The translations under genes and the position numbers were made by a program. From IMG/VR virus record IMGVR_UViG_3300010352_001202: a DNA stretch of 64,000 nucleotides; one strand, written 5' to 3'. How positions within the stretch are numbered: the first letter of the stretch is position 1; every line of letters starts with the position of its first letter. The notes beneath the pieces are model-generated. The model made no database searches, was not told the origin of the DNA, and saw only the letters and a program-made list of their open reading frames with translations. Of this stretch, positions 3,494 to 63,052 are shown one piece after another. Source of the DNA: a virus. Taxonomy: Duplodnaviria > Caudoviricetes.

Positions 3494-4552
3494 ATGATCC
3501 TAGATGTCTTAAAAGACGCAATCCTTTCCAACCTTGGTACTCTTAAGCAAGCCCCTAAGGGCTGGCATAAGCGTAACTGTATGCTTTGCCACACACAAGG
3601 GCACGGCAGAGATACCCGCAACCGTTTTGGAATCCAGTTTAACCCAAACTCAATCGCACTAAATTGTTTCAATTGCGGATTCTCCGCTGGTTACACAGAA
3701 GGCGAGGAGCTATCTAAACACTTCAAGTTTTTCCTAACCCAATTACACATAGATGACAAATTCATTAAGCAAATCGAATTTGAAATCTTTAAGTCTAAAA
3801 ATAAGATTGATGCATTGCGTGAAGGCGAAAAGGTTGAGGATAAGGAAGGTAAACTCAAAAACTTGTTCCAGAAGTGGAAACCAATGGAGTTGCCCAAGGA
3901 TTCGTTACCTGTATCTCAATGGCTAGAATACGGTTTAGATAATCCCAACTTTCTAAAAGTTGTAAACTATGCACTTGATAGAAAAATATTTGATTTAGAC
4001 AACTTCTACTGGTCACCGCTACGAGAACATAATCTAAATCAAAGATTGATTATACCTTATTACTACAAAAGAAAAATTGTAGGATTTACTTCGCGACTTT
4101 GTTTCAATCCGCCCGACAAGTCTATCCCAAAATACTATCAACAATGCCCCGAAGACTTTGTCTACAATCTTGACAATCAACAAGAGTGGTCTCGTAAATA
4201 TGCACTTGTTACAGAGGGAGTTCTAGATGCCTGGGTTTTAGATGGCATAAGTATATTAGGAGAAGTAGGCCAGGCGAAGATTGATATTATCAACCGATTG
4301 CAGAAAGAAGTTATCGTATGCCCAGACGGTGACAAGAAAGGTTGGGATTTAGTTCAAATTGCAATAGATAACAACTGGGCGGTCTCGTTCCCCAAATGGA
4401 GCATGGAATTCAAAGACCCTGCAAGAGCAGCAGAAAAATACGGAAGGTTACTAACAACTCACTCTGTTATTTCTTCAGCAGTTCACGGCAAGGATAAAAT
4501 ACAATTAAAATGGAACATTGAACAAAATGACAGAGAACGAAAACGCAAGTGA
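3494..4552 (+). CDS. DNA primase (gp61-like)
   Basis: N-terminal Zn ribbon CMLC...CFNCG; TOPRIM motifs VTEGVLDA and PDGDKKG. Confidence 0.9.
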   Translation: MILDVLKDAILSNLGTLKQAPKGWHKRNCMLCHTQGHGRDTRNRFGIQFNPNSIALNCFNCGFSAGYTEGEELSKHFKFFLTQLHIDDKFIKQIEFEIFKSKNKIDALREGEKVEDKEGKLKNLFQKWKPMELPKDSLPVSQWLEYGLDNPNFLKVVNYALDRKIFDLDNFYWSPLREHNLNQRLIIPYYYKRKIVGFTSRLCFNPPDKSIPKYYQQCPEDFVYNLDNQQEWSRKYALVTEGVLDAWVLDGISILGEVGQAKIDIINRLQKEVIVCPDGDKKGWDLVQIAIDNNWAVSFPKWSMEFKDPARAAEKYGRLLTTHSVISSAVHGKDKIQLKWNIEQNDRERKRK

Positions 4553-5972
4553 AATTAATGACTATAGCAAGGACATAGAAGACTTGTTCATTAGTTTCAT
4601 GATGAGCAAGCCGGATCTGTTTGTACGATGCAAGGGTATTCTAAAGTCGCAATATTTTGATGATAAGCAAAACAGAGATACAGTTGCTTTCATTGAAGGG
4701 TATAGTGTTGACTTTTCAGAAATCCCGTCATTGCAACAAATCAGAGCAGTTACCAGAAAAGAAATAGACCTAATGGAGGTCGAGGCTGCAAAGCACGACA
4801 ATTGGTTCTTAAGAGAATTTGAAAAGTTTTGTAGGCATAAGGCACTTAGGGATGCAATTCTTGCATCGCCGGATTTGCTTGATGAGGGCAGATATGGCGA
4901 AGTTGAATCAACTATTAAGGCGGCGGTGCAAATCGCCCTGGTTAAGGACCTTGGAACAGATTATTACGCAAATCCCAAAGCACGACTTGAAGCGATTCGT
5001 GAGGGTAAGGGTCAGGTATCGACGGGCTGGAAAACAGTAGATGAAAAGCTATATGGTGGTCTAAACAAAGGTGAAATTACAATCTTTGCCGGACAATCTG
5101 GTGCTGGTAAATCTCTTTTCTTACAGAACCTTGCAGTCAACTGGGCGCAGGCAGGATTAAATGTAATTTATCTTTCACTAGAACTTAGCGAACCATTGTG
5201 TTCTATGCGTGTGGATGCAATGCACACTGGATTTGAAACTCGCGAAGTAATGCGTAACATCGATGATGTTCACATTAAGGTAAGAGCATCACAACAAAAG
5301 ACTAAAGGTAATCTGCAAGTAAAGCAATTGCCAAACGGCTGTACTTCTAATGATATTCGTGCTTATGTCAAAGAATACGAGATCTTTAAGAAGGTAAAGG
5401 TAGATGCAATTCTTGTAGACTATTTGGATCTAATGATGCCAATGTCTAAGAAGATTTCAGCAGAAAACTTATTCGTTAAGGACAAGTATGTTACTGAAGA
5501 GTTGCGTAACCTTGCAGTAGAGTTACAGGTAGTAACAGTTTCGGCTTCTCAGTTGAATCGTGGTTCTTATGAAGAAATTGAGTTTGACCCAAGCCATATT
5601 GCTGGTGGTATTTCTAAAGTTAACACAGCAGATAATGTCATCGGTATCTTTACAAGTGCTGCAATGAAAGAAGGCGGTAGATATCAAATTCAATTTATGA
5701 AGACGCGTTCTAGTTCGGGCGTAGGATCTAAGGTAGACTTATCCTTTGATAACAAATGTCTTAGAATTACTGACCTGGAAGAAGGCGACGATAATGCTAT
5801 ACAAGCAACTTCTAAGAACATCTATGAGCAATTAAAGAAGAAGAGTGTAGTAAGAGGCGGAGAAAAGGCAGAACCGAGCTCCGGAGACGCAACATCAATG
5901 ACACAGAATAGTGGAAAAGCTAATCCATTGGAAGGTGCGGCCGTGTTAAGAGCTTTTATTAAGAATAGATAG
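4527..5972 (+). CDS. replicative DNA helicase (DnaB/gp41-like)
   Basis: Walker A GQSGAGKS, SLEL, ILVDYLDL, SASQLNR, KTR; adjacent to primase. Confidence 0.95.
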   Translation: MTENENASEINDYSKDIEDLFISFMMSKPDLFVRCKGILKSQYFDDKQNRDTVAFIEGYSVDFSEIPSLQQIRAVTRKEIDLMEVEAAKHDNWFLREFEKFCRHKALRDAILASPDLLDEGRYGEVESTIKAAVQIALVKDLGTDYYANPKARLEAIREGKGQVSTGWKTVDEKLYGGLNKGEITIFAGQSGAGKSLFLQNLAVNWAQAGLNVIYLSLELSEPLCSMRVDAMHTGFETREVMRNIDDVHIKVRASQQKTKGNLQVKQLPNGCTSNDIRAYVKEYEIFKKVKVDAILVDYLDLMMPMSKKISAENLFVKDKYVTEELRNLAVELQVVTVSASQLNRGSYEEIEFDPSHIAGGISKVNTADNVIGIFTSAAMKEGGRYQIQFMKTRSSSGVGSKVDLSFDNKCLRITDLEEGDDNAIQATSKNIYEQLKKKSVVRGGEKAEPSSGDATSMTQNSGKANPLEGAAVLRAFIKNR

Positions 5973-5979
5973 ATAAATA
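5972..5979 (+). promoter_or_regulatory. late promoter box GATAAATA
   Basis: Immediately after the helicase stop, at the start of the structural block. Confidence 0.7.
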
Positions 5980-6004
5980 TGCGAAAGTAATTGGAGATAG
6001 CAAA

Positions 6005-6286
6005 TTGCCTATTAATCGCAGAAGCAGGTCTATTTTAGAAGAGATTAGCTCCTATGTTCCTCAAAAGAGCAAGGAAGATCTCATTGAGGCCAGAGCACAA
6101 CATATAATAGTTTCAGCCATCAATTTGCTTGAATCTATTGACGAATCTTTTTCACCAGCGGAAGCAGAAGCACTTAAGAAACGCTTTGTTTCCAGCATCC
6201 GTGGCTCCGACCCTAACCGATTTACCCGTATGGTTAAGAGAATTAAGGGTGGATGTGACGGAGAAGACGAATTCGATGGACACTAA
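6005..6286 (+). CDS. hypothetical protein (late)
   Basis: 93-aa ORF, SD GGAG, TTG start. Confidence 0.7.
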   Translation: MPINRRSRSILEEISSYVPQKSKEDLIEARAQHIIVSAINLLESIDESFSPAEAEALKKRFVSSIRGSDPNRFTRMVKRIKGGCDGEDEFDGH

Positions 6287-7520
6287 AGCTTTAACAAAAG
6301 ATTGGATTCAGTATTTAAAAAATAACAGAATTGTTGACCTTAAATCAGATCCGTCCGGTAAACTTAATTACAGAAGAGATGTAACTGCACAAGATTTAGA
6401 AAAATTTCTAGATATAAGCTTTCCCGAAGAAAAAGTATCAAACGCTATCAAGATGGTCCTTGCCAAGAAAGGTGCAGGCAATGGACAGTCAAAACTCCAG
6501 AACAATCCCACACAACAGCAACCCGGCTCGTCACTATCGACATGGTCTCAATCTGAAACAACACCGGGGCAACCTGTACCGCAAGGCCAGCAAAGAATAG
6601 GGTCTAGTGTTCCGCCAGCCTCCCCACAACAACCTGCAGCAAAGAAATCTAAGTATAGTAAGGATGATGCTGAAGATATCGAGTTTAGAGAACCAGGTCA
6701 GAAGAAAGGCAAGGTAAAGGAAGCAATCCGTGATAATCCCGGCGATACATTTAGCGAAGACGATGTTGAAGCAGTATTTAGGTTGTTAACTTCGCCTGGT
6801 GCAGAACAACCAAGTCAAGAAGAGCCAGCCCAGCAGGCCGAAGTATCAACAGAGCAAAAACAGGCTGCACTAAAGAAAATTAAGTATGCCATTAGAGATG
6901 TGTTGTCTCCAAAGCAGAGAAAAACATTCTGGCGCGCACTTAATGACACAAATATTTCCGAATCATTGATTACCACTGCTGATGCAAAGGCATTGCTACA
7001 AGGTGCGGCTAAACTCAGAAGCAAGCCAACACTGGGCGGAAGAATATTCAAAGGTCTGCAGAAAGATAAGATTGAGGTAAACGATCTTCAACAAGCATGG
7101 AAAGAAGCCGGTTTTCCAGATGACACTAGAGACATTGCTGCTATACTAAAGGATCAGTTTGGCTTCTCCGAAGATGAGATAGAGAAAGTATTCTCCAATG
7201 TATTTGATTCCGACGACGAAGATGAAGACAACGATAATGAGCCAGTTGCAAGTCCAGCAATTCAAGGAATGGTTGATCATATTAATGAATTAGGATTAAC
7301 CGACGAAGTCAAGAAGTTTATGGAAAAAGAATTCGGGCAGGAACTAGGGTTACAAGATAATCCAGGTATGTTCAGTAAACTAAAGAAGTTTTTTGGAAAG
7401 AAAGCAGTTGCCGAAGATGTAAGATATATCTTCACTGCAATTATCCAAGAAGAAAGAAAAGATAGATTTGCAATTTTACGACAACAGGAACAAACACACC
7501 TCGGCCGCAGCAAAAAATGA
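6276..7520 (+). CDS. hypothetical protein, probable head-internal protein
   Basis: Gln/Pro linkers and acidic tracts between helical domains; start refined to ATG 6276. Confidence 0.7.
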   Translation: MDTKALTKDWIQYLKNNRIVDLKSDPSGKLNYRRDVTAQDLEKFLDISFPEEKVSNAIKMVLAKKGAGNGQSKLQNNPTQQQPGSSLSTWSQSETTPGQPVPQGQQRIGSSVPPASPQQPAAKKSKYSKDDAEDIEFREPGQKKGKVKEAIRDNPGDTFSEDDVEAVFRLLTSPGAEQPSQEEPAQQAEVSTEQKQAALKKIKYAIRDVLSPKQRKTFWRALNDTNISESLITTADAKALLQGAAKLRSKPTLGGRIFKGLQKDKIEVNDLQQAWKEAGFPDDTRDIAAILKDQFGFSEDEIEKVFSNVFDSDDEDEDNDNEPVASPAIQGMVDHINELGLTDEVKKFMEKEFGQELGLQDNPGMFSKLKKFFGKKAVAEDVRYIFTAIIQEERKDRFAILRQQEQTHLGRSKK

Positions 7521-8911
7521 TCATAAATGAAATATCCAAAGGCATCACACACATAGAGGATCTTGGAGTTGACGAGTTTCTTAATGTTCTAATTTATCTT
7601 AATGAATACGAGATTACCGAAAAAGTAGACGGTGCTCAGATTCTATTTGGACTAGACAAAAACGGTTTATATACCTCCCGTGAAACAAAGGGCGGAGTAA
7701 GGGTATATAACCCCGGAGATTATGGTGTAAGTTTTCCAACAACTTACATGAGATCTGCACACAGACTGTTGGAAATGGTATATCCGGATCTAATGGCAGC
7801 TGGCTTAAAACCAGGTGATCAGGTCGAGGCCGAAGTATTGTACGGCGAACTTCCAAATGTTGTACCTTACTCGGAAGATAGAAGCTATCTAATCTTCTTG
7901 CGCACAACCGAGGGTGAAGTAAATATCGACCGTTTGAAAGAGAGACTTGACGGGAGATCACTAGACATAACCCAACGGACTCCAATTACAGACGACGGGC
8001 GAGATATATACACATCGGACGTAACTGTCGAGTGGATGTTCTCTCGCGCACCAAAAATTTCTATAAATGTGGAATCGTTAAGGACTGCGATTGCTCCACA
8101 TGCTGCAAAAATGACAGCCTATCTAAGGGAATCGTCCGGTATTTGCGGCCAACCTAATCATGTCATCGAAAGTATGCCTCTTAATAAAAGGCCCGAATGG
8201 TGCAGGCCGGAAGACTGGAAAGATGTAAAGGAAGAAGCCAAGGCAAAAAGGATCGAATATCAACACATCTTACGTGAAGGCCACATGGCTAAGATTAAGG
8301 AAGTCCTCCTAAATCGCATAGTTCGTAAACAGCGCAGCGAATTCGGTCCTCCTATCGAAGAAGGCGGATGGATTGAAGGTGTAGTTCTTCGACACACCGA
8401 AACCGGCAAAATGGTTAAAATTGTTGACAAGGAAGTTTTTGGTGTACTTCGCGAGTCTGCCTGGAAAGCACGCAATCAGTTAACCGAAAGTGCAAGGAGC
8501 ACAGACGGTAATTTGAGCTTTTTAGGCAATTTAAAGGTAGCACTTGCTACTTCCTTGGGTCATCCCGAGCTAGGCACGATGCAGGCAAAAAACTACCTAA
8601 GAAAAGCAGGAACTATTACTGAAGAGCGTATTGCTAATCTTTCTACAGGCATTAGACTAGATGTTGTAAAAGAATACTGGCTCAATTTACTCGAATGCCA
8701 GACTGAACTTTTAGGATCGGAATTAGATAAATATGAAGAAGAAACGTCCAGTCAAGAAGGACATGTTTGGGAAGGTATTAAGAGGAGAACTCTTGAGACA
8801 TTTGCTTCGACATTCGCACTTCTTGAAGACATGCGTTTTCGTACCAGTCAAGCGGTACAAGTAGAGGATTTGATAACAATACTTGCAGGGAAGCAGTTAG
8901 CTGATATTTGA
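7517..8911 (+). CDS. ATP-dependent ligase-superfamily (RNA-ligase-like) protein
   Basis: Motif I ITEKVDG, III VEAEVL, IV IEGVVL, V MVKIVDK. Confidence 0.7.
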   Translation: MIINEISKGITHIEDLGVDEFLNVLIYLNEYEITEKVDGAQILFGLDKNGLYTSRETKGGVRVYNPGDYGVSFPTTYMRSAHRLLEMVYPDLMAAGLKPGDQVEAEVLYGELPNVVPYSEDRSYLIFLRTTEGEVNIDRLKERLDGRSLDITQRTPITDDGRDIYTSDVTVEWMFSRAPKISINVESLRTAIAPHAAKMTAYLRESSGICGQPNHVIESMPLNKRPEWCRPEDWKDVKEEAKAKRIEYQHILREGHMAKIKEVLLNRIVRKQRSEFGPPIEEGGWIEGVVLRHTETGKMVKIVDKEVFGVLRESAWKARNQLTESARSTDGNLSFLGNLKVALATSLGHPELGTMQAKNYLRKAGTITEERIANLSTGIRLDVVKEYWLNLLECQTELLGSELDKYEEETSSQEGHVWEGIKRRTLETFASTFALLEDMRFRTSQAVQVEDLITILAGKQLADI

Positions 8912-8912
8912 C

Positions 8913-9134
8913 ATGAGACTAGATGAGATAGTAACATTAAACGATGTTTTGAAGGCAAACCAATATGTAAAATTATTGCATGCCCTAAGCACAAAGGCCG
9001 GTACAGATATCAACATAACTCGTATCAAAAATCAGGTAATTCAATCCTGGAAAAAGGGAATGAAGCATCGTAAACACTACGATGATTTACTTTCAAAAAT
9101 TGATATAAGTCTAAACGATCTTATAGACAAATGA
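8913..9134 (+). CDS. small hypothetical protein
   Basis: ORF coupled to neighbours; N-terminus MRLDEI. Confidence 0.65.
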   Translation: MRLDEIVTLNDVLKANQYVKLLHALSTKAGTDINITRIKNQVIQSWKKGMKHRKHYDDLLSKIDISLNDLIDK

Positions 9135-10009
9135 AACTAAAATACATTGCGCCGCCCGATTCAGAGGGCGGCTCTGCTGTGCCCGGATGCGGAACCATCC
9201 ATATCTCCGAAGTAAAACCTACACTTACCAAATTATCTGATGATTTGGACTTTCCCTTTGACCTAAACGAATATGTACTTGGATCAACTGGTAAGAAAGA
9301 ATACTCAGGTGATATCGATCTTGTGCTCGACGATAAGTGGTGGGGCCACGGAGTAGCAGCACTAAGAGGCGATTTGGAAAACATCTTCGGTAAGCATGCT
9401 GTGGCAAGAAACGGCAGCATGGTACACTTAAGGTACCCGATTGTGGGATATAATCCCGAATTCAAAGAGCACGGTCCGCGCACAGGATATGTCCAAGTTG
9501 ATTTTAATTTGGGAGATACCGCATGGGAGAAGTTTTATCATTACAGTCCCGGAGACGATTCCGAGTATAAAGGCGCACATAGAAATCTTGCCATTGCGGC
9601 TATTTGTGCAGTAGCAGATGTTCAAAGCTCCAGGGAAGTAGATGGATATGATAGACCCGTTGAGCAGATCAGATGGAAGTTTGGACCAAACGGATTTATT
9701 CATGTGCGTCGTGAAAGTACCAAAGAAGAACACACAGGTGTATGGAAAAGAAAACAGAATGATACGGTGCTCGAAGATCCAGTTAAGGATCCTGCCCGTA
9801 TTGCTCGGATCTTATTTCCAGTCGACGGTGTTCCGGATGACCTACATAGTCTAGAAACTATCATAAATGCTGTGGAAAGAAACTACGGGATGACAGATCA
9901 GCAACGTATCTGGAAACGCATGGCCTCTAATTTTACCGACTGGAAAGACGGTAAGAACTTTCTCTATCCTACCGAAATTAGTAAATATTTGTCGTCAAGT
10001 GATAAATAA
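9131..10009 (+). CDS. Pol-beta-superfamily nucleotidyltransferase
   Basis: LGSTGKKEYSGDIDL (hGS...DxD) and third Asp in VQVDF. Confidence 0.8.
   Translation: MKLKYIAPPDSEGGSAVPGCGTIHISEVKPTLTKLSDDLDFPFDLNEYVLGSTGKKEYSGDIDLVLDDKWWGHGVAALRGDLENIFGKHAVARNGSMVHLRYPIVGYNPEFKEHGPRTGYVQVDFNLGDTAWEKFYHYSPGDDSEYKGAHRNLAIAAICAVADVQSSREVDGYDRPVEQIRWKFGPNGFIHVRRESTKEEHTGVWKRKQNDTVLEDPVKDPARIARILFPVDGVPDDLHSLETIINAVERNYGMTDQQRIWKRMASNFTDWKDGKNFLYPTEISKYLSSSDK
10001..10008 (+). promoter_or_regulatory. late promoter box GATAAATA
   Basis: Upstream of 10057 with strong SD TAAGGAG. Confidence 0.75.
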
Positions 10010-23299: not shown

Positions 23300-23640
23300 A
23301 ACATAAGTACGAAGTAACTGATAGTAGCACAATCAACTCACTGGAGTATGATTTCGAGAAGGCAAAGCTTGTCATTGAGTTTAAAGCCGGCAGCAAATAT
23401 ATCTATTCTGCTGTTCCCGAAGATGTGGCCAGGGAACTGTTCCTTGCCGAATCCAAGGGTAAGCATTTTGCTGCACATATCAAGGACAAGTTTGTTACCG
23501 AGAAGGTCGGTGCTACGCTAAACAAGCCTGCTGCATGGAAAGCTCCTAAGGCAGTACCAGCAGCACCTGTTAAGGCGTATCCTGCACCTAAAGCACAACC
23601 TGCGGCATATTGGCCGTTTCCATTAGGTAACAAGCCATAA
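23296..23640 (+). CDS. KTSC-domain protein with Pro/Ala/Lys tail
   Basis: SSTINSLEYD...LVIEFK.G..Y.Y..VP......L..AESKGKHF...IK. Confidence 0.85.
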   Translation: MKHKYEVTDSSTINSLEYDFEKAKLVIEFKAGSKYIYSAVPEDVARELFLAESKGKHFAAHIKDKFVTEKVGATLNKPAAWKAPKAVPAAPVKAYPAPKAQPAAYWPFPLGNKP

Positions 23641-24107
23641 TGGGCGATGTGGTAATTGGAGTTACTGCCGGTAGCTTCGACCTAACCCACGCCGGCCATT
23701 ACTTGATGTTTGAAGAATGCAAAGGTCAGTGCGATTACCTTATCGTTCTATTGCAAACCAATCCGCATCTTGATAGACCTGATAAGAATACTCCTGTACA
23801 AAGTACACATGAGAGGTACTTACAGGTTCGGGCTTGCAAATATATCGACGAGGTAATTGTTTACGAGACTGAGGCAGACCTGTATAATTTACTTTGCTCA
23901 ATTAAATTTGACAAGAGATTTATTGGTTCAGACTGGGAAGGTAAACCCTACACAGGGCATAATATTCCCGGTATGAATTCGAAGGTAGTCTTTAATTCAC
24001 GGAATCACGGATTTTCAACATCAGGTCTTAGAAAAAGAGTTTACGAGGCAGAAAATGCAAAACACACCAACACCGAAAAATGTCCCACCTCCGGTACCAA
24101 TCCCTGA
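23640..24107 (+). CDS. cytidylyltransferase (TagD-like, HxGH)
   Basis: GSFDLTHAGH, ERYLQV..CKYIDEV, GSDW, R.HGFSTSGLR. Confidence 0.85.
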   Translation: MGDVVIGVTAGSFDLTHAGHYLMFEECKGQCDYLIVLLQTNPHLDRPDKNTPVQSTHERYLQVRACKYIDEVIVYETEADLYNLLCSIKFDKRFIGSDWEGKPYTGHNIPGMNSKVVFNSRNHGFSTSGLRKRVYEAENAKHTNTEKCPTSGTNP

Positions 24108-24562: not shown

Positions 24563-25618
24563 ATGACAAAACGATACAAGCGTGTCGTCCTCATCGGACG
24601 ATTTCAATGCCCACACAACGGGCACCTAGCCAACTTCCTTCAAGCACTGAATATTGCCGACAAGGTGATTATTCTCGTGGGTAGTTCCTACCAGCCCCGC
24701 ACTCCGAAAAATCCTTTCAGGTACGCCGAACGCAGTGAAATGATCACTGATGCAATTCTTGCCGTTCGTCCGGATGCTGACTTCGAGGTATATCCGTTGC
24801 GTGATTACAAGTATAGCAACAACGACTGGATTTCCGCAGTTCAGGAACGAGTAAAGCGCGACAGTCCTGATGTCGAAGATAAAGACATCGCCATCATGGG
24901 ATATGATAAGGACGATACGAGTTGGTACAACCACGCATTTCCGGAATGGGACTTTGTTCCGCTGAATGGATTTGTTGAACATGGTTCTAAACCCATCGAT
25001 GCAACAAAGGTTCGCGAACTGTACTTCGAAGGTCACCTGGACTATATTCAAAGCACAATTCCGAAAACCACATTTGAATACTTGAAAGAATTCAGGAAGA
25101 CCGAATTCTACAATGCTCTTGTGGATGAATTTGTGTTCTATAGGGATTACCACAAGAAGTGGGAACCCGCACCCTTTACGCCGACTTTCCAGACTGTGGA
25201 TGCTGTGGTTATCCAAGGCGGTCACATTCTGCTCATCCAGCGTGGCCATTCGCCTGGTAAGGGATTGTGGGCACTGCCCGGGGGCTTCCTGAACCCACGC
25301 GAAACTCTTGAAGAAGGTTGCGTCCGTGAACTAATGGAAGAAACCAAGATCAAGGTTCCGGAAATTGTTCTTCGCAAGGCAATGACTTATTCCAAGCGAT
25401 TTGATCATCCGGATCGCGATCTTCGCGGTCGTACCATCACCGAAGCATTCCTATTTGAACTTACGGGTGGCGACGGTAAGCTTCCGCGAGTTAAGGGAGC
25501 CGATGATGCAAAGGTCGCAAAATGGTTTAAGCTTGCCGAAATTGATGATATGGAAGAACTCATCTATGGAGATCATAAGCATATCATCGATACGCTGAAA
25601 GCACGAGCAAGAAAATGA
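24563..25618 (+). CDS. nadM: bifunctional NMN adenylyltransferase / Nudix ADP-ribose hydrolase
   Basis: IGRFQCPHNGH, KNPF...ER, ATKVRE; Nudix box PGGFLNPRETLEEGCVRELMEET; GADDA. Confidence 0.93.
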   Translation: MTKRYKRVVLIGRFQCPHNGHLANFLQALNIADKVIILVGSSYQPRTPKNPFRYAERSEMITDAILAVRPDADFEVYPLRDYKYSNNDWISAVQERVKRDSPDVEDKDIAIMGYDKDDTSWYNHAFPEWDFVPLNGFVEHGSKPIDATKVRELYFEGHLDYIQSTIPKTTFEYLKEFRKTEFYNALVDEFVFYRDYHKKWEPAPFTPTFQTVDAVVIQGGHILLIQRGHSPGKGLWALPGGFLNPRETLEEGCVRELMEETKIKVPEIVLRKAMTYSKRFDHPDRDLRGRTITEAFLFELTGGDGKLPRVKGADDAKVAKWFKLAEIDDMEELIYGDHKHIIDTLKARARK

Positions 25619-48339: not shown

Positions 48340-49710
48340 ATGAGCATTCTGAAGATTCTGGAAGACATCGGCTCCGACACCAAGCGCGGGCACAAGCTTG
48401 CACTCATCGAGCAGCATAAAAGCAATAAACAATTTATGCAGGTGGTGAAGCTTGCACTGGATCCATATGTCAACTTCTATATCAGAAAAATCCCCGACCA
48501 TACATTCCGATTCCTCAGCGGATCCGATGACAGTCACAAGACCCTCGACTGGGCACTGGCTGAACTTGACAAGTTGTCGTCTAGACAACTCACTGGCAAC
48601 GCAGGTATTGAGCATCTTAGCCGTATTCTGTCTGAGCTTGATAGTGATGACGCCACTGTTATTAAGCGGATTATTGGTAAAGATCTGCGCTGTGGCATGG
48701 CGGACGGTATCGTCAATGCTGTCGTAGAAGGATTTATCCCTAGCTACCCGTGTTTGCTTGCTCGTCCTTACGATGCGAAAAACATCAAGAACATTACCTA
48801 TCCTGCGTACAGCCAATTGAAGGCAGACGGCCTCCGTGCAAACGGCATTGTTGAAGGCACCAAGGTTACTTTGTGTGGTCGTAGCGGTCGTGAAATCGAC
48901 ATGCTCGGACACATGGAACCTGAGCTGATTGAACTTGCTCAGCAATTTTCCTACCATTGCGTTTTCGACGGCGAATTCGTTGTTGTCGACCAAAACGGTA
49001 AGGTCATTGATAGAAAGACCGGCAACGGCATTATCAACAAGGCAATCAAGGGCACTATTTCCGACGAGGAAGCACGCCAAATTCGTTTCCAGCTGTGGGA
49101 TGTCATTCCCTTGGAAGAATTTAAGAAGGGTGTTTCCAAGCAAAAGTACAAAGACCGCTTTGAAGCACTTATCAAGGCAGTAAACGCTGTACAAAAGACC
49201 GGCGAGGATGCACTTGCGGAAAAACTGAAGGGACACACCGGTAAGTTCTGGGTTATTCCTTACCGCATTGTCAATAATCTGGAAGAAGGTGAAGCTCACT
49301 TCCAGGAATTGCTGGGTCTGGGATACGAAGGTACCATCCTGAAGAATTACTGTGCTCTCTGGGAAGATTCGCGCAGTAAGCACCTGGTGAAGATGAAAGC
49401 TGAGAAAGACTGTGATCTTGAAATCACTGGCTATAATCCCGGCACTGGTAAGTTTGAGGATATGGTTGGTAGCTTGCAAATGGCAAGCAGTGATAGATTG
49501 GTTGAAGTATCTATTAGCGGCTTCTCGGATGATTTGCGCCAGTGGATTACCGACAACATTGATGATTTGATTGGCACAATTGCTGCTGTCACTTATAATG
49601 AGCGCATCAAGAGTAGAGACAGGCCGAATGTAGATTCCCTGTTCCTGCCGCGATTTGCAGAATTCAGGACTGATAAGACTGTTGCTAACTCAAGTAAGGA
49701 AATCAAGTAA
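48340..49710 (+). CDS. ATP-dependent DNA ligase (gp30-like)
   Basis: QLKADGLR (motif I), FDGE, LWD, YEGTILK, VKMKAE, OB domain SLFLPRF. Confidence 0.95.
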   Translation: MSILKILEDIGSDTKRGHKLALIEQHKSNKQFMQVVKLALDPYVNFYIRKIPDHTFRFLSGSDDSHKTLDWALAELDKLSSRQLTGNAGIEHLSRILSELDSDDATVIKRIIGKDLRCGMADGIVNAVVEGFIPSYPCLLARPYDAKNIKNITYPAYSQLKADGLRANGIVEGTKVTLCGRSGREIDMLGHMEPELIELAQQFSYHCVFDGEFVVVDQNGKVIDRKTGNGIINKAIKGTISDEEARQIRFQLWDVIPLEEFKKGVSKQKYKDRFEALIKAVNAVQKTGEDALAEKLKGHTGKFWVIPYRIVNNLEEGEAHFQELLGLGYEGTILKNYCALWEDSRSKHLVKMKAEKDCDLEITGYNPGTGKFEDMVGSLQMASSDRLVEVSISGFSDDLRQWITDNIDDLIGTIAAVTYNERIKSRDRPNVDSLFLPRFAEFRTDKTVANSSKEIK

Positions 49711-49859: not shown

Positions 49860-49894
49860 CTGGTAGCACTGTGCTATCAGCACAGGAGTTTATC

Positions 49895-50530
49895 ATGTTT
49901 ACTAAATATCCGAGAACATTCCATCTCCCTTGGAGTCCCGGATTTACCGATGACGACAAGGTCCTAACGGACCTTTCGTGTTTTGTTGGTAAGCGTGTTA
50001 TCGGCACCAAGAAAATGGATGGCGAAAACACTACCGGATACAGCAACGGGTATGTCCATGCTCGTAGTATTGACAGTCGTGGCGGTGTAGACAGGGACTG
50101 GGTCAAGCAGTTGTGGGCAGGTATAGCACACAATATGCCCGAAAACTGGCGAATTTGCGGTGAGAACCTTTGGGCTCGTCACTCGATTGCTTACGCAGAC
50201 CTGCCGTCGTATTTTATGGCATTTTCCATTTGGGACGAGACAAACATTTGCCTAGGTTGGGATGATTCTGTTCAGTATTTTGACTTGTTAGGTATTGAGC
50301 ATGTTCCTGTCATCTATGATGACATCTGGGATGAGGCAAAAATCCGCAAGTTACACGAAGGATTGTCTCCTACTGACGATGAGGGTTTTGTTATTCGCCT
50401 TGCAGGTAGCTTCCATTACGATGATTTTGGAAAAAGTGTTGCAAAATATGTTCGTAAAGGACATGTGCAGACCGGCAGCATTCACTGGCGTCATCAATCA
50501 ATTGTTCAAAACGGTCTCGTAGATAAATAA
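49895..50530 (+). CDS. RNA ligase family protein
   Basis: KYPRTFHLPWSPG, TKKMDGEN, ICGEN, EGFVIR, AKYVR. Confidence 0.85.
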   Translation: MFTKYPRTFHLPWSPGFTDDDKVLTDLSCFVGKRVIGTKKMDGENTTGYSNGYVHARSIDSRGGVDRDWVKQLWAGIAHNMPENWRICGENLWARHSIAYADLPSYFMAFSIWDETNICLGWDDSVQYFDLLGIEHVPVIYDDIWDEAKIRKLHEGLSPTDDEGFVIRLAGSFHYDDFGKSVAKYVRKGHVQTGSIHWRHQSIVQNGLVDK

Positions 50531-62121: not shown

Positions 62122-62532
62122 ATGACAAAAAATATCGATCTAAAAAAGTATGCACAATTTGTTGATGGCGTAACAGCCCAGCCAAGCAAGGAACTTCAGG
62201 CTCTTATTAGCCGAATGCAAGAGCTAGAAGCACAGGGCGCTAATGTTCCCCGCTTGCTTACAGCAGGCATTGGAATGCCTGGCGAATCTGGAGAGTTCAG
62301 CGAATTGGTAAAGAAGATTGTATTCCATGGTAAGGCATACGACGAAGAAAATATTACCAAACTGAAGAAGGAATTAGGCGATGTCGCTTGGTATTGGACT
62401 CAAGCTTGTCTTGCTCTTGATATCGACCCTAACAGTATTATTGCTGAAAATGTGGCTAAGTTAGAGGCACGCTACCCGGGTGGTAAGTTTTCTGTGTGGC
62501 ATGCAGAAAACAGGCAAGAGGGTGATGTCTGA
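62122..62532 (+). CDS. MazG-like nucleotide pyrophosphohydrolase
   Basis: GESGEFSELVKK...KKELGDVAWY...NVAKLEARYP. Confidence 0.88.
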   Translation: MTKNIDLKKYAQFVDGVTAQPSKELQALISRMQELEAQGANVPRLLTAGIGMPGESGEFSELVKKIVFHGKAYDEENITKLKKELGDVAWYWTQACLALDIDPNSIIAENVAKLEARYPGGKFSVWHAENRQEGDV

Positions 62533-63052
62533 TTTTAGAAAAATAATGTTGCCCATGATTCGGAGAATACTTCCGAGTCTTGTGGCACAGGAAATTATGA
62601 GCGTTCAGCCCATGACCGCATCAACAGGGAAACTATTTAAAATGGGATTAGGGCCGCCAGTTTGTACCTTATGCATGATTATAGGTACTCTTAACAATGA
62701 AGATAAGGGGCACCCCTGGCGTTGCCACAACTGTGGTGATTTTAAATTACCGGGGCACTTGTGGTCGTATACTGAAGATTTGCAACAATATATCCAGAAT
62801 AGAACTACATTGTATAAGGGTAGAAAAATTATGGAATCTAAAAAACTTCTACCTCATTCAGTAATAAAATCCTTCATGTTTGTTGGCAGCAATTTAGAGC
62901 CTAACGAACGGTATAGAGCATGGCTAGAAGAACATATTGGAAAACAAGGCGAAGCGTGGAACTGGGACATAAAATCAGTAACTGCTAACTTACTTGAAGT
63001 TTCTTTTGAACAGGAAGAGGATGCAGTCCTCTTCAGATTATCATGTCAGTAA
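62525..63052 (+). CDS. fusion: gp23 Gol-like peptide + Zn ribbon + 'F..EED' domain
   Basis: MIRRILPSLVAQEIMSVQPMTASTG; CTLC...CHNC; WLEEHIG...FEQEEDAVLFRL. Confidence 0.75.
   Translation: MSDFRKIMLPMIRRILPSLVAQEIMSVQPMTASTGKLFKMGLGPPVCTLCMIIGTLNNEDKGHPWRCHNCGDFKLPGHLWSYTEDLQQYIQNRTTLYKGRKIMESKKLLPHSVIKSFMFVGSNLEPNERYRAWLEEHIGKQGEAWNWDIKSVTANLLEVSFEQEEDAVLFRLSCQ

Follow-up and report, generated by a model that had tools for sequence, protein, structure and literature searches.

A candidate fill-and-seal repair pair of an RNA-ligase-type protein and a family-X-like nucleotidyltransferase in giant T4-like phages

Repair of nucleic acids by a polymerase together with a ligase is a known theme in bacteria and viruses. 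In bacterial LigD, a polymerase that adds ribonucleotides works with a ligase whose preferred substrate is a nick with a 3'-ribonucleotide. PgVPolX of Phaeocystis globosa virus 16T, a giant virus, is a fusion of a family X polymerase (PolX) with a ligase, for which gap filling and sealing have been shown in vitro (PMC5537341). RlaP, a nucleotidyltransferase (NTase) that occurs in pairs with RNA ligases, consists of an NTase domain and a helical domain (bioRxiv 10.64898/2025.12.29.696909). Here we describe a gene trio with features of such systems in a 64,000-nucleotide stretch of viral DNA (hereafter the window), taken from IMG/VR record IMGVR_UViG_3300010352_001202. The source is an uncultured giant T4-like phage, whose IMG/VR record of 184 kb is ~48% complete and whose complete close relatives are 369 and 385 kb. 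The trio comprises a ligase-like protein (LIG), a small open reading frame (ORF) and a Pol-beta-superfamily NTase (NT):

7517..8911, + strand: LIG, 464 amino acids (aa), a predicted covalent nucleotidyltransferase of divergent RNA-ligase type, in which the nucleotidyltransferase domain carries a helical insert and is followed by a C-terminal domain of helices
8913..9134, + strand: small ORF, 73 aa, basic and helical, with predicted translational coupling to NT
9131..10009, + strand: NT, 292 aa, a predicted Pol-beta-superfamily nucleotidyltransferase with a family-X-like palm and C-terminal subdomain and ~50 extra C-terminal helical residues

The tight packing of the trio noted in the initial annotation, which was made from the sequence alone, was confirmed, with 4-base overlaps or a 1-base gap between ORFs that all lie on the + strand. 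On balance we lean towards the view that the operon formed by these genes and two preceding ones (o6005 and o6276, described below) encodes a two-step 'fill-and-seal' nucleic-acid repair unit. Folds, catalytic residues, linkage and fusions are the basis of this reading, and from them we infer in what order the reactions run, what the substrate is and in which biological setting the unit acts. Linkage was assessed in 35 loci (32 from IMG/VR together with PA5oct, Atu_ph07 and Phosso), in which the conserved order was primase, DnaB, o6005, o6276, LIG, small ORF, NT and then o10057 onward. LIG adjoined NT in ~24 of the 29 loci with enough upstream sequence, and likewise in PA5oct, Phosso and Atu_ph07. 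The small ORF, with a mean column identity of 70% across homologues, also preceded NT in more distant loci (L031, L033) and accompanied it where LIG was missing (L010, L017). In PA5oct, gp228 is the LIG homologue, and gp230, the homologue of the small ORF, lies directly before gp231, the NT homologue. A predicted complex of NT with the small ORF product scored 0.00, a value that was obtained without controls and speaks neither for nor against binding. When 1.84 billion representatives were searched with an NT profile, the family comprised 998 clusters at 50% identity (E 1e-3 or better), almost wholly viral. Fusions were counted among the best 148 of these clusters: full LIG-NT fusions of 643-791 aa made up 10 independent 50%-identity clusters, six clusters joined NT to DUF6267 in the reverse order to LIG-NT (some with an additional cytidylyltransferase-like domain), two were tandem NT-NT proteins, and one (P0245) carried the small ORF at the N-terminus of NT. 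Several LIG-NT fusions recurred on 2-11 contigs from independent assemblies and are thus not assembly errors. Adjacent, co-transcribed and repeatedly fused enzymes normally share one pathway. The recurrence of the gene trio is far beyond chance, and the proposal that it holds a two-enzyme module acting together is borne out by the conserved adjacency and natural fusions.

The covalent nucleotidyltransferase motifs first read in LIG were all found in place: EKVDG at residues 35-39, EGVVL at 287-291 and VKIVDK at 300-305. Motif I (E35-K36-x-D38-G39) did not vary among 44 close and 8 distant relatives, and E104/E106, E287-G288-x-V290 and K301, representing motifs III, IV and V, were invariant or nearly so among relatives. 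K36, D38, G39, E106, E287, G288 and K301 were retained even at 24-30% identity, in the proteins of PA5oct, Phosso and Atu_ph07. LIG matched Pfam model PF09414 (RNA_ligase) at E 4.8e-5 with 24 bits, under the gathering cut-off of 27, and the same model matched 29 of the 44 LIG family members at E < 0.01 (best 1.6e-6); judged by sequence comparison, LIG is a divergent relative of PF09414 and not a scored member. The AlphaFold model of LIG (predicted local distance difference test, pLDDT, 91.8) comprised a nucleotidyltransferase core, a helical insert at ~185-269 and an all-helical C-terminus at 305-463, with no oligonucleotide/oligosaccharide-binding (OB) beta-barrel, in agreement with the long helical insert and helical, OB-less C-terminus anticipated in the initial annotation. 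Structural alignment of the core with VIA-align gave the highest score with the Rnl5-like enzyme NgrRnl (Z 10.2, root-mean-square deviation (rmsd) 3.5 Å, 192 residues), followed by REL1 (Z 9.0), T4 Rnl2 (9.0) and T4 Rnl1 (8.8), and scores of 7.4 or less with DNA ligases. Foldseek E-values with the LIG model were weak, yet all top matches were RNA ligases. On these models LIG is a predicted RNA-ligase-type adenylyltransferase, with a fold closest to nick-sealing RNA ligases. In one complete relative (G002), the LIG homologue (locus L013, 4696-5762) is ~100 aa shorter (~355 aa, 44% identity), so that the insert or the C-terminal domain is, seemingly, partly dispensable.

In NT, the GS...DxD signature (G51-S52, D61-I62-D63) and third Asp (D124) on which its assignment had been based are present and conserved. 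G51, D61, D63 and D124 were invariant in an alignment of 86 divergent relatives, in which S52, G54, K55, G60, Q122, G148 and R151 were nearly so. NT had no Pfam, PHROG or PDB sequence match, and the same was true of 43 close and 86 divergent homologues; LIG and the small ORF likewise had no match in PHROGs, and PDB sequence searches with single proteins and family profiles returned nothing significant. The sole PDB match of a diverse NT family profile was pol lambda, over the GS...DxD segment, at an E-value (0.17) that is not significant alone. The PolX Pfam models for palm (PF14792) and thumb (PF14791) did not match NT, and one of the 86 relatives matched the thumb at E 0.0089. The structure model (pLDDT 92.1) was more informative. 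All of the Foldseek top 50 were pol lambda or pol beta (best E 5.4e-5), and VIA alignment with pol lambda covered 169 residues at model positions 19-243 (Z 9.2, rmsd 3.2 Å). In a VIA search of 48,161 chains, which did not depend on Foldseek, the top eight were all PolX enzymes (Z 7.6-8.3, 155-173 residues, model ~10-245), namely Thermus PolX, TdT, pol beta, Leishmania pol beta, pol lambda and African swine fever virus (ASFV) Pol X. Of the pol beta palm-thumb, 163 of 194 residues were aligned, and of ASFV Pol X 155 of 176 (Z 7.6, rmsd 3.5 Å), whereas TUTases, CD-NTases, MenT1 and poly(A) polymerases aligned to NT over ~90 palm residues only. Among viral structure models, the nearest were phage homologues, followed by PolX proteins of nucleocytoplasmic large DNA viruses. 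NT is therefore not filed as a scored family X member, given middling Z-scores and no PolX Pfam match; from its predicted structure it is best described as a palm-plus-thumb 'mini-PolX' resembling ASFV Pol X, with extra C-terminal helices. Since the PolX-matched region starts at about model residue 19-22, there is no room in NT for the 8-kDa and helix-hairpin-helix subdomains. Predicted folds and conserved catalytic residues together indicate that LIG and NT are real enzymes of the superfamilies to which they were first assigned.

The comparison of LIG extended to DUF6267 (PF19782), which corresponds to gene cluster T4-GC 71 of T4-like cyanophages and is a core 'hypothetical' in these and in pelagiphages. 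The DUF6267 part of P0292 aligned with the LIG N-terminus across the HxEDL / K-x-DG region (hhalign E 6.6e-4), and in hmmscan the PF19782 model gave no match to LIG at E 0.1 or better. DUF6267 was carried by 21 of the 30 nearest Atlas feature neighbours of LIG, and the structural neighbours of LIG in Atlas include fusions of DUF6267 with a cytidylyltransferase. In Prochlorococcus phage Syn1 (L044, 4974-6730), DUF6267 has the ligase motifs HLEDE and K-W-DG, is found 3' of the gp41 helicase, in parallel to the position of LIG after DnaB, and is followed by a 'cytidyltransferase' gene; no NT homologue adjoins it. From its sequence, DUF6267 looks like an unrecognised ligase-like family. Taken with the LIG-NT and NT-DUF6267 fusions, this would mean that the NT family repeatedly partners a ligase-like domain, in either order. 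Between NT and DUF6267 themselves, hhalign with the NT profile showed no similarity, so the Atlas structural hint that links them is probably due to the fused proteins. PF01467-type domains were found fused to DUF6267 or NT in other phages. The window itself encodes a standalone protein of this type, which may be a third partner of the module:

23640-24107: cytidylyltransferase-like protein, 155 aa, standalone, PF01467 at E 2e-12, just 5' of nadM
24563-25618: nadM

We postulate that NT, as a minimal PolX-like enzyme, would extend the 3'-OH at a duplex gap or break by one or a few nucleotides, probably assisted by the small basic protein. LIG, as an ATP-dependent enzyme, would self-adenylate on Lys36, pass AMP to a 5'-phosphate and seal the nick. 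The substrate that we favour is broken or gapped phage DNA, possibly patched with ribonucleotides as in bacterial LigD. With the 3'-extension chemistry of NT and the 5'-adenylylation and sealing chemistry of LIG in proteins that are fused and co-transcribed, the simplest joint action would be to fill or extend and then to seal. End repair was one of several options listed for the trio in the initial annotation, and it is the one that the evidence favours.

Several observations weigh against this reading. The structure model of NT is without the 8-kDa and helix-hairpin-helix DNA-binding parts, its fold matches are middling (Z 8-10, scores that can reflect common arrangements), and no PolX Pfam model matches the NT family. 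NT was kept without an adjacent LIG in five loci (L010, L017, L028, L030 and L034), suggesting that NT can also function by itself or with a different ligase. An AP endonuclease (PF01261, PF03372) was not found in the two complete relatives, so a self-contained base-excision pathway is not evident. Recurrent fusions of ligase-like with cytidylyltransferase-like domains are also unexplained by simple fill-and-seal.

The trio lies downstream of replication genes and is preceded by a recurring promoter-like motif:

3494-4552, + strand: primase gene
4518-5972, + strand: DnaB helicase gene
5973..5980, + strand: promoter-like motif GATAAATA, 32 nt 5' of the o6005 start, likely start of a transcription unit
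6005..6286, + strand: o6005, 93 aa, function not assigned, heads the operon
6276..7520, + strand: o6276, ~414 aa, acidic, Gln/Pro-rich, low-complexity; the ORF was listed from 6129, with the ATG at 6276 as likely start
8727..8734, + strand: internal GATAAATA within LIG, 186 nt 5' of the small ORF
10002..10009, + strand: GATAAATA overlapping the NT stop, marking the start of the next unit (o10057)

The protein o6005, which was without a match in a Pfam search, was kept 3' of DnaB in all related loci and in PA5oct, Phosso and Atu_ph07. Homologues of o6276 (30-45% identity), for which a Pfam search also gave no match, occupied the same position in related loci. The gene is fast-evolving and was always found between o6005 and LIG, where PA5oct has two proteins detected by mass spectrometry (MS). 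The initial annotation had set the trio between structural-type genes; upstream are primase and DnaB, and downstream are unknowns among which only o14111 matches a PHROG 'virion structural protein', leaving that one gene in keeping with the description. In nearly all related loci the motif was kept 28-36 nt 5' of the o6005 homologue; it was also conserved 53-58 nt 5' of o10057 homologues, and no such motif was present directly 5' of the LIG, small ORF or NT genes in the related loci compared. Its positions, before o6005 and at the NT stop, suggest that o6005, o6276, LIG, the small ORF and NT form one transcription unit. A further copy, at 8727 inside LIG, was conserved in position in 17 of 24 loci; it overlaps conserved Asp-Lys-Tyr codons and is possibly an internal promoter or a by-product of those codons. 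Both upstream and internal sites had been called late boxes. A recurring, conserved motif does stand at each, but its sequence, [G/C/T]ATAAATA, is distinct from the T4 late box TATAAATA, and the internal copy overlaps conserved codons. The exact T4 late box was not enriched, with one occurrence in the window, below chance expectation. Late expression of the operon is plausible.

Other features of these loci were noted in passing. In one relative (L021, 2735-6001), the small ORF and NT are separated by an insertion of ~3.3 kb with four ORFs, of which the last has a weak radical-SAM match (E 1.5e-4). In Atu_ph07 (L002, 91-7378), ~9 tandem paralogous genes of ~255 aa each lie directly 3' of the NT homologue; they were ruled out as NT paralogues and form a separate family unrelated to NT or LIG. 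A 190-aa ORF at 62480-63052 of the window matched the T4 Gp23 major-capsid model over its first 40 positions only (E 4.6e-11), and a second short Gp23-like piece, which contains TGA, was found elsewhere in the same record.

The strongest alternative, which we consider unlikely, is that the pair is an analogue of RlaP plus RNA ligase and repairs RNA (tRNA) damaged by host ribonucleases, with NT restoring lost 3' nucleotides and LIG rejoining the halves. RlaP NTases adjoining RNA ligases are a described theme of jumbo phages (PMC7824862), and RlaP adds 1-2 nucleoside monophosphates to RNA 3' ends in vitro (bioRxiv 10.64898/2025.12.29.696909). The RlaP model PF10127 was absent from the source record and five related records, and neither complete relative (G001, G002) has it, so NT could take the role of RlaP in this clade; against this, none of 43 NT family members matched PF10127 at E 1 or better, and the second subdomain of NT is like that of template-reading PolX enzymes, and not like the helical domain reported in RlaP. 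An RNA substrate would suit LIG, whose Pfam match and fold are both of the RNA-ligase type and whose C-terminal domain is helical and non-OB, but RNA ligases are already present in this phage and in its complete relatives. Full-length RtcB was found in both complete relatives (L040/G002 and L041/G001; E 1e-125 to 1e-130), and the window contains, as the initial annotation had stated, both a DNA ligase and an RNA ligase of standard type, to which LIG and NT are additional:

48340-49710: standard DNA ligase gene
49871-50530: RNA ligase gene, 219 aa, PF09414

A search for a polynucleotide kinase that would make 5'-phosphate ends yielded no convincing candidate, and the gene sits among replication genes. 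In known enzymes, the PolX-type second subdomain reads the templating base. The PolX-like subdomain, the position among replication genes, the cover that RtcB and the small Rnl already give to RNA repair and the want of a clear polynucleotide kinase thus argue for a DNA substrate, and the RNA-ligase character of LIG, a clade without PF10127 RlaP and the missing AP endonuclease for RNA. By analogy, a ribonucleotide patch of the LigD type would reconcile the two sets of indications, and the LigD preference for ribonucleotides and 3'-ribo nicks would make sense of an RNA-ligase-type sealer paired with a polymerase.

A second alternative, which is compatible with fill-and-seal and adds a place and time to it, is that the virion carries and injects the small protein and NT, perhaps together with LIG, to act on the incoming genome, e.g. 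by mending nicks or gaps or modifying ends before host nucleases act. We regard this as less probable again. PA5oct gp230, gp231 and several of their neighbours are annotated as detected by electrospray ionization tandem MS (ESI-MS/MS) in virion preparations, but the LIG homologue gp228 was undetected in them, and the same data list ribonucleotide reductase and '7 virion-unrelated enzymes' among 93 proteins, so detection does not prove packaging. Likewise, the operon stands under a conserved T4-late-like motif, but [G/C/T]ATAAATA is also found 5' of metabolic genes, e.g. GTP cyclohydrolase. Packaging of the small ORF product and NT is a weakly supported possibility, and the description of the module as 'packaged' in the initial annotation goes further than the PA5oct data allow.

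The fill-and-seal reading can be taken further, to a doubtful and more speculative form in which giant T4-like phages would own a LigD-like break-repair machine. Here the mini-PolX and a small basic clamp-like subunit would patch phage DNA, possibly with ribonucleotides, and the RNA-ligase-type enzyme would seal the 3'-ribo nick; part of the machine would be virion-borne, mending the genome on entry and blunting host nicking and cutting defences. It is very improbable that the pair does no strand repair and that ligase-like, NTase and cytidylyltransferase-like domains instead make or attach a nucleotide-containing group (an end modification, a cap-like structure or a small molecule), as the repeated fusion or adjacency of the DUF6267 ligase-like domain to PF01467 cytidylyltransferase-like domains and the standalone PF01467 protein at 23640-24107 might suggest, because these folds are not known to meet in any pathway of this kind, the match of CD-NTases, alarmone synthetases and the like to NT is confined to the palm, and KxDG-lysine chemistry with a PolX-like second subdomain is typical of polynucleotide enzymes. 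Two further options of the initial annotation find no support in the same alignments: for nucleotide-signal synthesis, CD-NTases cover the NT palm only (~90 residues) and PolX both subdomains, and protein NMPylation is unsupported, as NT aligns over both subdomains with family X polymerases only.

The NT family is large and nearly all viral, and is without a Pfam or PHROG model, and its LIG partner ties in DUF6267, a T4-like cyanophage core gene without an assigned function. If true, the fill-and-seal reading would turn two widespread phage 'hypotheticals' into proteins with a testable role, and repair by PolX plus ligase, as in giant eukaryotic viruses, would be found in phages too. The two proteins are also of interest as very small polymerase and ligase scaffolds, and since PA5oct is cultivable and has all three genes, direct testing is possible.

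A search of the literature yielded no paper that names PolX in jumbo phages or the homologues in PA5oct or Atu_ph07. The earlier statement that this exact LIG-NT pair has no characterised function holds, alongside close functional precedents in PgVPolX, ASFV Pol X with its ligase, and RlaP with Rnl; the pair is an uncharacterised variant of a known polymerase-plus-ligase repair theme. DUF6267 (T4-GC 71) shares with LIG the N-terminal HxEDL and K-x-DG motifs, a post-helicase position (in Syn1) and fusion to the NT family (6 clusters), and differs in that its PF19782 model does not match LIG and that Syn1 has no NT homologue nearby. In RlaP (PF10127) paired with RNA ligase, as here, a Pol-beta-superfamily NTase is linked to an RNA-ligase-type enzyme with an add-then-seal logic, but NT is unmatched by PF10127 and its second subdomain is PolX-like. 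Like the unit proposed for NT and LIG, bacterial LigD unites a polymerase with an ATP ligase for repair, but the LigD polymerase has an archaeo-eukaryotic primase fold, not a Pol-beta fold, and its ligase has an OB domain. ASFV Pol X is, like NT, a minimal PolX of palm and C-terminal subdomain only, without the 8-kDa and helix-hairpin-helix parts; there is no detectable sequence similarity between them, and NT, of 292 aa, differs in having inserts and additional helices at the C-terminus. Unlike LIG, the ligase of ASFV is an OB-containing DNA ligase, and the virus has in addition an AP endonuclease, an enzyme not found in the two complete phage relatives. PgVPolX combines a complete Pol-beta-like core, lyase activity included, with an NAD+-dependent DNA-ligase domain that follows it, whereas the phage filler is reduced to palm and thumb, the sealer is of the ATP/RNA-ligase type, and the order is ligase then NT, with separate genes in the window. 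PgVPolX resembles the LIG-NT fusions in uniting a viral PolX-type filler and a ligase in one protein.

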